This document shows positions 1 through 4,124 of a stretch of 4,124 nucleotides of DNA, one piece after another. The notes below the pieces were generated by a model. It searched no databases. It was not told the origin of the DNA and saw nothing but the letters and a program-made list of their open reading frames with translations. Location of the stretch: NCBI RefSeq assembly GCF_003334785.1, contig NZ_QOWV01000049.1. One strand, written 5' to 3'. The translations under genes were made by a program, and so were the position numbers. Positions within the stretch are counted from its first letter, which is position 1. Every line of letters starts with the position of its first letter. This DNA comes from Escherichia coli. Its GTDB lineage: Bacteria; Pseudomonadota; Gammaproteobacteria; Enterobacterales; Enterobacteriaceae.

Positions 1-61
1 AGAAAATATCCGGCGGGTTCCGGAGCGCCAGTCTGTAGGTTTATCCATCAATAGAACTCCG

Positions 62-100
62 TCTAATTTAGAAGGAGCTCTAATTTAGTCTGCAAGGAGC
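62..100. repeat. Short interleaved direct repeats: TCTAATTTAG (62-71, 79-88) and AAGGAGC (72-78, 94-100)
   Basis: Read directly from the sequence: gTCTAATTTAG-AAGGAGC-TCTAATTTAG-tctgc-AAGGAGC-agg. The two TAATTTAG copies place TAA/TAG stops in all three + frames (64, 69, 81, 86). AAGGAG is a perfect Shine-Dalgarno core, but no start codon follows at a usable distance. Confidence 0.6.
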
Positions 101-475
101 AGGTGTTACAGACGGCATTGGCTTTACGCTTACAATGGCTTTAAAGAAACCTTCAAAGTTCGTCCGCAGGCAACCGCCGGTGTATCCTGGCACAATGACC
201 TGTTTACCACTGCTCTTGACATTGATCTGACTCCTGCCAGTGGCTTCACTTCTGACAGCAAACGTCAGTTTGCAAGTGTTGGTGCTGAATTTAACGCATG
301 GAAATGGGCGCAATTGCGTGCCGGTTATCGTCAGAACATGGCATCAAACTCCGGAAGCGCCTTCACCGCTGGCGTTGGTATCTCTCCATTTGACGTCGTA
401 CATATCGATGTTTCCGGCCTGGTAGGAACTGACCACGATTACGGTGCAATGGCACAACTTCAGTTCACTTTCTGA
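89..475 (+). pseudogene. 3' fragment of an outer-membrane beta-barrel protein gene, with no start codon or signal peptide. Possibly the TraF_2-like putative OMP family, but this is unverified.
   Basis: Frame 2 is open for 128 codons from 89 to TGA 473-475. It has no ATG/GTG/TTG before TTG 314, which explains its absence from the ORF track. The translation ends ...LRAGYRQNMASNSGSAFTAGVGISPFDVVHIDVSGLVGTDHDYGAMAQLQFTF*. That tail has alternating hydrophobic residues and a terminal Phe, which is the classic BAM beta-signal. A strong terminator follows. Upstream of 89 all three frames are closed by stops, and beta-strand-like sequence (GAGVTDGIGFTL) sits in frame 3 at about 95-130, suggesting a frameshift. 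The family name is from memory only. Confidence 0.5.
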
Positions 476-534: not shown

Positions 535-1119
535 ATGATGAAACCACGTTCTTCTTATTCAAAAACAGCATTCATTCTTTTATTTTCTGTTTTCCTAGTA
601 GCGGCAGTGACAAAAGCAAAAAGCTCGCTTCCCGATATCACCCTGGAACAGGCAAAAGAAATTAATGCTGATAACACCGTTATTTTCCTTTTCCGCCATG
701 GAGAACGTTGCGACCGTTCAGATATGCCCTGCTATTCGGATAAGAGCGGAATCACTATTACCGGTACAGAGAAAGCACAGCAGGAAGGTATTAAGTTCGC
801 AACAATCTTCAGTGAATATGATATTTACTCCAGCAATGCAGTAAGAACCATACAAACTGCAAAATTCTTCTCCGGTAAAGAACCCGTCGTTATGGACAGT
901 TTATCAGACTGCAATAATGATCTTTATAAGACGCTTGAATCAATCGCAAGAGAATCTCATAAAAGGAACATAGTAATAATGACACATAATCATTGTTTAT
1001 CATTTCTGGCCAGAGATAGGCTCGGCAAGAAATTCAAACCGGCGTACCTTGATGCCCTGATCATGCATTACGATGGCACCCGGCTCATACTTGACGGAAA
1101 ATACAACAAAGAGGCATAG
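535..1119 (+). CDS. ais: Secreted histidine-phosphatase-superfamily protein, a paralog of Ais/PmrG (lipopolysaccharide core heptose(II)-phosphate phosphatase)
   Basis: The 194-aa ORF has an N-terminal signal-like segment (MMKPRSSYSKTAFILLFSVFLVAAVTKA). It carries the catalytic RHG motif in FLFRHGERCDRS. Long blocks match my recollection of E. coli Ais: DKSGITITGT, YSSNAVRTIQ, NIVIMTHNHCL, FKPAYLDALIMH, LDG. I estimate about 45-50% identity by eye, so this is a divergent paralog rather than the chromosomal ais allele. The SD is poor and ATG 538 is an alternative start. Confidence 0.85.
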   Translation: MMKPRSSYSKTAFILLFSVFLVAAVTKAKSSLPDITLEQAKEINADNTVIFLFRHGERCDRSDMPCYSDKSGITITGTEKAQQEGIKFATIFSEYDIYSSNAVRTIQTAKFFSGKEPVVMDSLSDCNNDLYKTLESIARESHKRNIVIMTHNHCLSFLARDRLGKKFKPAYLDALIMHYDGTRLILDGKYNKEA

Positions 1120-1513
1120 AGGATATTTGAATTTACATAAATTCTGATATACTCAGTAAGATACAAGAGTGTACGGGCACATGTGCCTGTCTGAATTGCA
1201 GGTTATCCGGACGAGGGCCGGGAACTGTTTCAGGGACAAGCGCCGGTACGTTTGATTCATAAATCGTCGAGTCATCCATCATGGATCGATTCGGCGCGGA
1301 GCGTTAAAGATTACGCTCATATTCGTTTTATGTCTGACGACACATCAACCAGCCAGTATCAGGAATAATCACCTTCAGTAAACTATGAGGCTATTTACCT
1401 GGCCACACTGGCATTTATTTCCGGTAACGCAAGTATAGCCGGAAACAAACATCATCCTGTCTGTACCGGAGCACCGGTATATCCCATTCTGATTTAACTG
1501 CTCAGGAATTATT

Positions 1514-1669
1514 ATGAACCGTATTATACCTGCGGGGTGTCTTGCCGCCCTTTTTCTGGCTGGCTGCAACTCCCCTTCTCAGAATACTCCTGTTCCGCGT
1601 AACTACGGTGCTGCCTCTGATGTGGCGGTTAACGCTTGTCGCGTGGTATCAGACCTTTGCCACTGCTAA
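1514..1669 (+). CDS. Short lipoprotein-leader ORF (51 aa), probably the 5' fragment of a lipoprotein gene
   Basis: ATG 1514 is preceded by AGGA (1504-1507) at 6-nt spacing. The translation is MNRIIPAGCLAALFLAGCNSPSQNTPVPRNYGAASDVAVNACRVVSDLCHC*. It has a positively charged n-region, a hydrophobic core and lipobox L-A-G-C (Cys18). It falls below the ORF-track length cut-off and overlaps the 5' end of the 409-codon ORF in another frame. Confidence 0.45.
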   Translation: MNRIIPAGCLAALFLAGCNSPSQNTPVPRNYGAASDVAVNACRVVSDLCHC

Positions 1670-2771
1670 CCAGCGTCTGGCAGAGCTGGCTGACAGAGCT
1701 CCAGCTGTAACTTCAATGTCATCACTTGGGGAAGTTGGCGATACTGATTTATTTAGTGCTGTTATGGGGGCATACAAGACTCAATTGCAGAATTCAACTT
1801 ATACCCCACCTTTAGGTACTATAACTTCAGCAGACGAACAACTACTTTCAAAAACAAGCACGCCACAAGATGCTTTAATCAAGCCCACAGAGAAGTTTGG
1901 GCAATGGCTTACGAACAATATTGCCACCGAGTGGACTGATTCGGGTACAAGTAGCAATCAAGTTAATCCACTGATAAAAATGAAAAATATTGGTGATAAA
2001 ACTATGGTCGCTGCAGAGGGTATTTGGATTACTTATACATCTGCTAGAGTTATTACTTCAGGAACTGGGAGTTCTATATTTGGTAAATTCATAGATTTGA
2101 CGACAAGTGCTATTTCAACACTAAATGCCTTACTTGAGGCCTTAGCGCCCCCCGTATACTTTCTGTTACTACTGCTGTTTTGTGCAGGATTCTCTTTATC
2201 TATTTATTTACCATTTATTCCGTTTATTTTCTGGATGACTGGGATTGGTAACTGGGTCATTAGTGTATTAATCGGATGTACAGCTGGACCTCTGTGGGGG
2301 GCAACTCATCTAGGCACATCACAGGACAGAGGGAGTCGTGCTGCCTACGGTTATATATATTTAATAGACAGCATGATAAGACCACCTATCATGGTTTTCG
2401 GATTCTTTTTTGCCTCTGTAGCCATTATAGCAATAGGTACTATATTAAACTTTTTATTCGGTGCTGCACTGACCAATGTACAAATAAGTTCATTTACAGG
2501 TATATTTAGCCTCGCAGGTTTCTTACTTCTTTATGCTAGAAGTTGCACAACAATTGTAGCCGCAGCATTTGCCTTACAAGCATACCTCCCAGACCATGTA
2601 ATTAATTTCCTAGGAGGACGTGATGGTGTAAACACGCTTGGGAATATGGCTGGTTCAATAAAAGAGATTTTTGCTGGCAGCAATAGAAACATAAGACACG
2701 CACCTAATATAAGAGAGGAGCAAATTAAAAGGATGAATAACGACAACAATAAGGATGGAATAAAGGGATAA
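1542..2771 (+). CDS. traY: DotA/TraY-family (IncI / type IVB conjugation) integral membrane protein, N-terminally truncated. Only the C-terminal roughly half of a full-length protein is present, and the 5' about 150 nt are probably not native coding sequence.
   Basis: The 409-codon open frame begins at a TTG with no SD. The first ATG (1620) also lacks an SD. From about residue 45 onward the sequence looks protein-like, with a Ser/Thr-rich soluble region. At least 4-5 hydrophobic spans follow: VYFLLLLLFCAGFSLSIYLPFIPFIFW, NWVISVLIGCTAGPLWGA, PPIMVFGFFFASVAIIAIGTILNFLFGAAL and FTGIFSLAGFLLLYARSCTTIVAAAFAL. The ORF ends in a charged tail. The architecture and the PLWGATHL...RGS..AYGY..L......RPPIMVFG region resemble my memory of the DotA/TraY family (TIGR04346). 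The position just upstream of an ExcA-like gene fits IncI synteny. Full-length TraY proteins are much longer, about 700+ aa. Confidence 0.55.
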   Translation: MPPFFWLAATPLLRILLFRVTTVLPLMWRLTLVAWYQTFATANQRLAELADRAPAVTSMSSLGEVGDTDLFSAVMGAYKTQLQNSTYTPPLGTITSADEQLLSKTSTPQDALIKPTEKFGQWLTNNIATEWTDSGTSSNQVNPLIKMKNIGDKTMVAAEGIWITYTSARVITSGTGSSIFGKFIDLTTSAISTLNALLEALAPPVYFLLLLLFCAGFSLSIYLPFIPFIFWMTGIGNWVISVLIGCTAGPLWGATHLGTSQDRGSRAAYGYIYLIDSMIRPPIMVFGFFFASVAIIAIGTILNFLFGAALTNVQISSFTGIFSLAGFLLLYARSCTTIVAAAFALQAYLPDHVINFLGGRDGVNTLGNMAGSIKEIFAGSNRNIRHAPNIREEQIKRMNNDNNKDGIKG

Positions 2772-2787
2772 TAACTTAATATATGAC

Positions 2788-2816
2788 TTGCCATATACAC
2801 TTGGAGAGATTAAAAT
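2788..2816 (+). promoter_or_regulatory. Sigma70-type promoter candidate for the 204-aa ORF
   Basis: TTGCCA (2788-2793), then exactly 17 nt, then TAAAAT (2811-2816). Each hexamer matches the consensus at 5 of 6 positions. The candidate lies in the 75-nt gap after the traY-like stop, about 20 nt upstream of GGAGG (2833-2837) and ATG 2847. Confidence 0.5.
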
Positions 2817-2846
2817 ATCAAAAAGTGTTTATGGAGGTCATATATA

Positions 2847-3461
2847 ATGATTGGAGCATATGCAAACCGTGGCGGCACCCATTCTAAAAAAGAAACATGC
2901 GTGATCGCATTCGCGCTTTTCTACATTATTTTCGCCGTCCCATTACTAATCATTTGGAATACACCTACCAGTTGGGGACTAGCAGTAATCCCAACTGGAT
3001 TCCTACTATACTCCGGATATAAAAATGGAAGAAAGAAAAGAGCAATCGTAAATAATATCCTAGAACAGATAAAGACTGAATATCATGATGCATTCGATCC
3101 AGACCCATCTTACGAACACAAATCAATATCATCATTATATTTCGGAATTGATATCAAAAAAGGTACTGCGTTATATATTCGGCTTTACCCCAATAAAACA
3201 TTAGATGTCATTGGCATTGATATTGATAATTTTACACGGACAGTAGTAAGAGAAAACTGTATGGAAATACACACAAAGTATGTCAATATGCCAATGTTAG
3301 AATTGCCTATTGGTGTTAACTCTGCTCGTTCTATTGCAAACACATTGCACGCAATGGCAAGTCGAGGATATGATTACCCTGTCGACTTTCCTCGCCTGAT
3401 TCAGGAAAAGCGTAAGGAGTGGGAGCAGATTGCAGGTATGCCTGTAGCTGAAGTATTTTAA
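2847..3461 (+). CDS. Two-TM inner-membrane protein with a cytoplasmic C-terminal domain. It is a candidate ExcA-like entry-exclusion protein, assigned by position only.
   Basis: The 204-aa ORF has a strong SD (GGAGG, 9 nt before the ATG), its own promoter candidate and its own terminator. Two hydrophobic helices are present, CVIAFALFYIIFAVPLLIIW and WGLAVIPTGFLLYSGY. Basic residues flank them (HSKKE before, KNGRKKR after), so both termini are predicted to be cytoplasmic. A soluble domain of about 140 aa follows. In IncI1 plasmids the gene immediately 3' of traY is excA. I cannot confirm sequence similarity to ExcA. Confidence 0.8.
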   Translation: MIGAYANRGGTHSKKETCVIAFALFYIIFAVPLLIIWNTPTSWGLAVIPTGFLLYSGYKNGRKKRAIVNNILEQIKTEYHDAFDPDPSYEHKSISSLYFGIDIKKGTALYIRLYPNKTLDVIGIDIDNFTRTVVRENCMEIHTKYVNMPMLELPIGVNSARSIANTLHAMASRGYDYPVDFPRLIQEKRKEWEQIAGMPVAEVF

Positions 3462-3481
3462 GATAAGCAGCCTCCATAACT

Positions 3482-3510
3482 GCCGGTTCAGATGAGCCGG
3501 CTTTTGTTTG
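3482..3510 (+). terminator. Rho-independent terminator after the 204-aa ORF
   Basis: Stem GCCGGUU (3482-3488) pairs with AGCCGGC (3495-3501). It is 7 bp including one G-U pair, with a 6-nt loop, and is followed by TTTTGTTTG (3502-3510). It begins 21 nt after the TAA stop. Confidence 0.75.
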
Positions 3511-3558
3511 CAACAACACATAGCTTATGCCGTATTAAATAAACCCAAGGACCTATTT

Positions 3559-3753
3559 ATGGCAAAAACAAAACAGGAATGGTTATATCAGTTACGTCGC
3601 TGTTCCAGCTTAAAGACACTTGAGAAAATTATTGCTAAAAACCAGGGCACTTTGGCCTCAGATAAAATAGAAGCATTCAACTCTGCAGTTGATCATCGCC
3701 TTGCGGAACTGACAATGAACAAATTGTACGACAAAGTACCAGCTTCTGTCTAG
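3559..3753 (+). CDS. hha: Hha/YmoA-family haemolysin-expression-modulating protein (H-NS co-regulator), with the C-terminus shortened by TAG at the conserved Trp position
   Basis: The translation [64 protein letters not shown] matches Hha/YmoA (...RLRRC.TIDTLERVIEKNKYELSD.E...[22 protein letters not shown]..VW....) across its full length. An AAGGA SD (3546-3550) lies 8 nt before ATG 3559. The track's TTG 3508 start lies inside the upstream terminator and is rejected. Confidence 0.9.
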   Translation: [64 protein letters not shown]

Positions 3754-3772
3754 AAGTACGTAAAATAACGCC

Positions 3773-3805
3773 AACAAAAAGAGCAGGAAATCCCACACCT
3801 GCTCT
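3773..3805 (-). terminator. Rho-independent terminator oriented for minus-strand transcription
   Basis: An 8-bp stem pairs AGAGCAGG (3780-3787) with CCTGCTCT (3798-3805) around a 10-nt loop. The U-run lies on the minus strand only: the complement of CAAAA (3775-3779) plus flanking bases reads TTTTGTTGG. On the + strand the hairpin is followed by CATTCC, which is not U-rich. Confidence 0.5.
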
Positions 3806-3976
3806 CATTCCTGAATAAACATATCCAATATATTCCAATGCGAAGAAATAATCTCCGTAGAAACACCCATGAGAAAAATATCATATGGGAGAAAATCGCA
3901 ATTATCACAGCCAGTGCATTCATTATTTTCGCTGTGCTCTGGCATTAATTATTTTCAACATAAAAAGGAAAAAATA

Positions 3977-4047
3977 ATGAATCTGGTAGACGCCTTTGTC
4001 AAAAAAGTAATATCCGGGCCATATAAAGAATATGGAAAATGGTGGAT
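3977..4047 (+). pseudogene. 5' stub of a small hypothetical gene interrupted by the IS insertion
   Basis: ATG 3977 is preceded by AAGGA (3965-3969) and encodes MNLVDAFVKKVISGPYKEYGKWWI. The reading frame then runs straight into the IS terminal inverted repeat at 4048. The remaining residues of the track ORF (…EPPRVSWRVFYL*) are IS sequence. The part of the track ORF upstream of 3977 has no SD and looks non-coding. Confidence 0.35.
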
Positions 4048-4124
4048 TGAACCGCCCCGGGTTTCCTGGAGAGTGTTTTATCTGTGAACTCAGGCTGCCA
4101 GATCATCGTTTCCGATGGAAGCAT
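4048..4124 (-). mobile_element. IS3-family insertion sequence, IS629/IS1203/IS3411-like. The right (IRR) end is present and the element continues beyond the window.
   Basis: Positions 4048-4124, TGAACCGCCCCGGGTTTCCTGGAGAGTGTTTTATCTGTGAACTCAGGCTGCCAGATCATCGTTTCCGATGGAAGCAT, are the reverse complement of the IS629 right end as I remember it (...TATGCTTCCATCGGAAACGATGATCTGGCAGCCTGAGTTCACAGATAAAACACTCTCCAGGAAACCCGGGGCGGTTCA). The terminal TGAACCGCCCCGGG is the characteristic IS3-group inverted repeat, with a 5'-TG terminus. Confidence 0.85.
4090..4124 (-). CDS. IS3-family transposase OrfB, extreme C-terminus (partial, continues off the window)
   Basis: The minus strand reads (t)at gct tcc atc gga aac gat gat ctg gca gcc tga, giving ...YASIGNDDLAA*. 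The stop is the complement of 4090-4092. This matches the remembered C-terminal end of the IS629 OrfB. Confidence 0.75.
   Translation of the reverse strand, partial: ASIGNDDLAA

Follow-up and report, generated by a model that had tools for sequence, protein, structure and literature searches.

The open reading frame of about 1.1 kb that ends at position 2771 of the window (the whole stretch of 4,124 nt of Escherichia coli DNA analysed here, from contig NZ_QOWV01000049.1) is, with high confidence, the 3' remnant of an R621a-type traY gene left behind by one deletion, i.e., an ordinary pseudogene. Through a simple deletion at a microhomology, about 19.7 kb holding nearly the whole type IVB mating apparatus has been lost from the window's locus. 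The remnant, although real, is ordinary and does not represent a new kind of gene or system. The features identified within the window are listed in Table 1.

Table 1. Features of the window, with coordinates in nt from its first base.
Feature	Position	Strand	Remarks
IS66-family element end (ISEc23-like)	1..132	-	terminal repeat GTAAGCG... ending at 132; start of the first transposase-operon gene
IncI1 traF, 3' end	133..475	+	cut by the IS; 99.4-99.5% to traF of L001, L002 and R64
Histidine phosphatase gene, Ais/PmrG-like	535..1119	+	194 aa; NF011945, 295 bits, E 2.2e-88
Native non-coding spacer, phosphatase gene to traH	1120..1513	.	394 nt; collinear with intact IncI plasmids
traH start, lipoprotein signal LFLAGC	1514..1631	+	first 118 nt, 39 codons; by alignment to intact traH
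Gene-caller frame	1620..2771	+	383 aa; its ATG lies within traH DNA; 409 aa from TTG 1542
Deletion joint	1630..1631	.	TA common to both parents; traH nt 117-118 joined to traY nt 1028-1029
traY 3' remnant, R621a type	1632..2771	+	codons 344-722 and native stop; TIGR04346
Promoter-like site TTGCCA-17-TAAAAT	2788..2816	+	between the traY stop and excA; consensus match only
excA, intact, R621a (IncI-gamma) exclusion type	2847..3461	+	204 aa; NF033891, 234 bits, cut-off 100
hha-family gene	3559..3753	+	64 codons; NF008191, 93 bits
Conserved IncI hypothetical gene, 5' part	3869..4047	+	285-nt CDS in pACN001-F; truncated by the right-hand IS; last base with IncI homology 4047
IS3-family element end (IS1203/IS629-like)	4048..4124	-	starts TGAACCGCCCC; matches in 4068 E. 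coli genomes

The six-frame list of open reading frames gave a stop-free frame that runs to the stop at 2771 from either TTG 1542 (409 codons) or ATG 1620 (383 codons). The first-pass annotation, made from the DNA letters, had taken this uninterrupted frame for the C-terminal half of a DotA/TraY protein, and a search with the NCBIfam profile that it had named, TIGR04346 (DotA_TraY), agreed: the match scored 281.6 bits (cut-off 100; E 1.4e-83) and covered only profile positions 322-656 of 656, the C-terminal half. The full architecture of DotA/TraY proteins comprises an N-terminal signal and membrane spans, a large hydrophilic domain and a C-terminal polytopic region. When aligned with R621a TraY (WP_000698360.1), the window retained residues 344-722 of 722, identical at 378 of the 379 aa, and residues 1-343 were absent, in full agreement with the annotated loss of the native N-terminus and with the estimate that full-length TraY is about twice the size of the fragment (722 aa vs 379 retained). 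Identity to R64 TraY was 286/376. Two particulars of the annotation had to be corrected. TraY sequence had been set to start at 1700; traY-derived DNA begins at 1632, and the part of the frame before it, 1542-1631, consists of traH sequence in another reading frame. The fragment had also been described as only the polytopic core of the protein; its first ~165 residues are hydrophilic and form part of the large loop, variable internal segment included, and its hydrophobic segments come after this hydrophilic head, at about nt 2118-2576.

IncI homology begins at position 133, and by megablast against PLSDB and complete E. coli genomes positions 133-1631 were collinear with the IncI traF, histidine phosphatase and traH stretch at 99.4-99.5%. 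The view that no other IncI tra gene lies upstream of the frame was thus mistaken, as the 3' end of traF and 39 codons of traH are there at that identity; between the two IS ends, these two pieces are all that was found of a type IVB gene set upstream. NCBI's PGAP had labelled the same traH piece in another locus (L001) as traH "missing C-terminus". The Ais-like gene and the non-coding DNA noted upstream were both present, but as native IncI neighbours of traF and traH rather than as unrelated surroundings. The phosphatase gene is a native IncI gene, not a foreign one; its product, WP_000977522.1, is encoded between traF and traH in R64, R621a, pACN001-F and p2-Ec-BERN-042. All differences of this gene from other alleles are at third codon positions and therefore look like allelic variation among working plasmids, not like decay following the deletion.

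The deletion joint was placed by a three-way alignment of the window, intact traH and intact traY. Identity to traH ran to 1631, corresponding to traH nt 118 in codon 39, and unambiguous identity to traY began at 1632, corresponding to traY nt 1030, the first base of codon 344 of 722. The two parents share TA at the joint and agree at 4 of the 5 positions of GGnTA. The stretch missing between these points is 19,728 bp long in R64; in R621a, where an extra IS2 is present, its length is 21,064 bp. The genes lost with it were traI, traJ, traK and those that follow as far as traX, together with the 3' part of traH and codons 1-343 of traY. A single illegitimate-recombination deletion of about 19.7 kb best accounts for this arrangement: traH nt 118 was joined to traY nt 1030 at the TA microhomology, with removal of the 3' part of traH, traI-traX and the start of traY, essentially the whole mating apparatus, and the traY piece was left between the joint and excA.

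The same traH nt 118 breakpoint, with the TA microhomology and with loss of traI-traX, is present in p2-Ec-BERN-042 (NZ_CP042936.2) and in about 20 related small IncI plasmids of PLSDB. The right breakpoint in these plasmids is at traY nt 418, vs 1030 in the window, and their traY and excA are of the R64 type, vs R621a. Both joints read GGCGGTTA followed by A (GGTTA/A), with the TA microhomology (window 1620-1640; L001 7490-7510). At the breakpoint intact traH reads GGTTACC, a GGTNACC palindrome, which was noticed post hoc. Judged by eye, the breakpoint bore no convincing resemblance to the sfx site of the shufflon or to the nick region of oriT, which had been considered as other causes of the shared breakpoint. 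Among PLSDB records with this traH stretch, only 29 of 1377 were incomplete there. The shared breakpoint could reflect a breakage hot spot, a history in two steps, or coincidence.

A two-step origin of the window's joint would require a deletion of the p2-Ec-BERN-042 type (traH118::traY418) followed by a TAA slip to traY nt 1028-1030, with loss of a further 612 bp. It has in its favour that the left breakpoint is identical in the two alleles, that both joints share the reading GGTTA/A, and that a TAA/TAA slip in the p2-Ec-BERN-042-type allele would yield exactly the joint in the window. We nevertheless consider it improbable, as the p2-Ec-BERN-042-type allele lies in an R64-type traY/excA background whereas the window is of R621a type, single-nucleotide differences in the left flank provide no link between the two alleles, and a second deletion would need to have begun at precisely the position of the first joint. 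Nor did a synthetic query representing the intermediate, i.e., the traH118::traY418 joint with R621a-type sequence downstream, find such a plasmid in PLSDB. One deletion, as set out above, is the reading retained here.

Positions 1627-4047 matched the IncI traY-excA-hha block at 99.5% (megablast, PLSDB and complete E. coli genomes). The ExcA protein encoded within this block is identical to R621a ExcA, which is of equal length, at 202 of 204 residues, and to R64 ExcA at 89 of 157; the exact protein occurred on 105 contigs. Because TraY matched R621a at 378/379 and ExcA at 202/204, the locus is an R621a (IncI-gamma) TraY/ExcA pair, and the suggestion that the neighbouring ExcA is cognate to the TraY piece was correct. 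Several traY/excA variant pairs have been described among IncI plasmids (PMC8004404). The part of TraY that ExcA is reported to recognise is the central region in R64 and the C-terminal one in R621a (Sakuma et al. 2013, as cited in PMC12365149 and PMC11493245), and both regions, which vary between the R64 and R621a types, are contained in the retained piece, as had been proposed. In the published model ExcA of the recipient targets TraY of the donor (PMC11493245); that model assigns no part to a TraY fragment residing in the same cell as ExcA and lacking a secretion system. The further suggestion that the piece serves as the target of the neighbouring ExcA found no support as a function; the co-location of the two is inherited synteny together with the endpoint of the deletion. 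The intact excA is the unit with a plausible continuing function, and its product could exclude incoming R621a-type plasmids. Promoter-like sites, including the one between traY and excA, were no more or less numerous in this region than expected from shuffled sequence. The hha-family gene downstream has a TGG to TAG change at 3750-3753, which gives 64 codons vs 69 in pACN001-F, and two more non-synonymous changes (Thr to Ala) at 3655 and 3673.

Over its 1140 nt the traY remnant showed three differences from the closest intact traY alleles of PLSDB (99.7% identity): one non-synonymous substitution, G to V at 1639, and synonymous ones at 2552 and 2642. Because of this near-identity to an intact functional gene, the open frame is what ancestry would lead one to expect and is no evidence of selection. 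It had been argued that a frame of this length would not stay open at random; its length is indeed far beyond chance, but it carries no independent information, having been inherited from the functional gene. Two explanations for the open frame had been offered, recent truncation and retention through expression. The three substitutions in 1140 nt support the first, which is more exactly put as little mutation since the truncation, and the second was not supported; dN/dS between the fragment and intact alleles is not meaningful with so few changes. The sole non-synonymous change (GGC to GTC, Gly to Val) lies 8 nt past the joint and may be a by-product of the joining; it counts among the points against the reading adopted here.

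The first-pass annotation had further proposed that the fragment might be translated from a lipoprotein leader upstream. This leader proved to be the start of traH, and an in-frame TraH::TraY lipoprotein fusion was ruled out: relative to the start at 1514 the traY frame is shifted by +1, and the truncated traH frame continues into traY DNA in the wrong register and meets a stop codon at 1667-1669 after 51 aa. Since the traH frame ends at 1669, the fragment could not be translated from the traH start without a frameshift. The same annotation had seen no credible Shine-Dalgarno sequence or start for the frame, and this was confirmed at all five in-frame starts, with no Shine-Dalgarno-like sequence in the 20 nt before TTG 1542, GTG 1608, ATG 1620, ATG 1716 or ATG 1764. 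A consensus scan of the + strand found no promoter-like site in 1050-1620, and the IS at 132 severs the upstream part of the operon (traE and the 5' end of traF). As a candidate functional gene, the frame has neither its native start nor a ribosome binding site, and its one non-synonymous and two synonymous changes are uninformative on selection. Lacking a native start, the signal and first membrane spans, and a ribosome binding site, and being out of frame with traH, the traY remnant is most likely untranslated and a pseudogene; leaderless or weakly initiated translation from ATG 1620 might conceivably occur at some level.

What the sequences show directly is the anatomy of the locus, its joint, the reading frames and the near-identity to intact alleles; from these features we infer non-expression, and likewise the reason why the block persists. 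A different reading would have the C-terminal TraY fragment translated, from ATG 1620 or by reinitiation after the stop of truncated traH, and kept by selection, e.g., through the co-resident cognate ExcA. The frame is open and has an ATG at 1620, it holds the variable segments, one internal and one C-terminal, to which ExcA recognition has been ascribed (PMC12365149), and its sequence is identical in many samples with differing flanks. This 100% conservation across samples, outlasting several flanking IS events, could hint at retention, but it is biased by the method of retrieval: contigs were retrieved by an exact match to the intact product, and disrupted copies would escape. We regard translation with selection as very unlikely, in that no start has a Shine-Dalgarno sequence and the frame is mismatched with traH; loss of the signal and first membrane spans would leave a 165-residue hydrophilic head with no route of export; selection would go undetected with as few as 3 substitutions in 1140 nt; and exclusion as published pits the ExcA of a recipient against the TraY of a donor and does not operate inside a single cell (PMC11493245). 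Still less credence can be given to the more specific notion that a headless TraY, started at ATG 1620 near the joint, would be retained through binding of its C-terminal, ExcA-recognised segment to the ExcA of the same cell, tuning or stabilising an orphan exclusion module left over after the loss of its conjugation system.

The joint is real and predates the flanking IS events. Positions 1..132 matched IS copies in 706 E. coli genomes at 100%, an annotated example of which carried IS66-family tnpA, tnpB and the ISEc23 transposase; at the other end, contigs L004-L007 run on into IS3-family transposase genes. Fifteen contigs were 99.8-100% identical to the window, and contigs with the joint showed four left flanks: the IS66 end at 133, unrelated DNA at 328, traF continuing upstream without interruption (L011), and IS100 at 875 (L014). 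The joint found no full-length match among 72,556 PLSDB plasmids or 5,426 complete E. coli genomes, where a match in one piece would have headed the megablast lists, and two exact-pattern scans for it in GTDB species representatives returned nothing; a scan of metagenomes yielded no more than a single copy of the joint and a single variant of intact traH. That the traH-traY joint is an assembly chimera, with no real molecule behind it, can be dismissed for practical purposes, for although repeated IS ends form both limits of the window and the locus is known from short contigs only, being absent from the plasmid and complete-genome collections just named, the joint occurs at 100% identity in independent samples from three assembly sources, lies in unique sequence outside the repeats and has an analogue in closed plasmids, and its identity on about 15 contigs (ENA, Logan and NCBI assemblies) with four left flanks shows it to be no assembly artefact.

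The 383-aa product was found in 30 blocks of the collection index and on 18 contigs of the cluster table, and the 409-aa product on 12 contigs that were read and 8 in the cluster table; neither product is recorded outside short contigs of this one locus, which derive from assemblies of ENA, Logan and NCBI. A stand-alone family of homologues of about 380-410 aa was ruled out, as the 90% cluster holds partial TraY fragments only. The carrier of the remnant is probably an IS-rich mosaic plasmid. In four contigs, the DNA before window position 328 (L006 1-297, L007 1-53, L012 1-28 and L018 1-28) matched no other fetched locus and represents a second left-flank rearrangement of the same remnant, joined at 328. 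In a 23.6-kb metagenome contig (L014, 1-9336), the remnant from window position 875 directly adjoins IS100 and what looks like a complete type VI secretion cluster of plasmid type. E. coli plasmids of 81-94 kb with IncI-type nikA/nikB (L019, NZ_CP069544.1) carry this cluster at 100% identity. The two closed plasmids that have the cluster at this identity are without the remnant at that spot.

Truncated tra genes are common in decaying IncI backbones. The finding matters little for biology, the NCBI pipeline already marking an analogous piece as incomplete (that of p2-Ec-BERN-042 is labelled "DotA/TraY family protein, incomplete, missing N-terminus"). The 383- and 409-aa hypothetical proteins called by gene callers nonetheless deserve a pseudogene flag. 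A transfer-dead remnant with an intact excA could bar the entry of R621a-type plasmids, which would be relevant to host range as inferred from genomes, and the fact that two unrelated deletion alleles break traH at the same nucleotide provides a small lead on how IncI transfer regions are lost.

Compared with R621a, whose traY encodes the full 722 aa, the window has the same traY stop and the same cognate excA type downstream but is without the first 343 codons, the native start and traX. The lost codons specify the signal and first membrane spans along with most of the large hydrophilic domain, and the rest of the secretion system is likewise absent at the window's locus. The p2-Ec-BERN-042 type of plasmid retains traF, the phosphatase gene and excA, as does the window, and differs in keeping traE, rci and its replicon and in being known from closed sequences. 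In pACN001-F (NC_023326.1) the transfer operon also has a large internal deletion, and its distal traY-excA-hha block is 99.5% identical to that of the window; its breakpoints differ, one falling in the spacer that follows the phosphatase gene and the other close to traV, and traV-traY are intact. This plasmid (L023 22260-23624), which served as an "intact traY" reference, is thus itself without traH to about traU, and large internal tra deletions in IncI backbones therefore seem to be recurrent, though MOB-suite types these backbones as conjugative.
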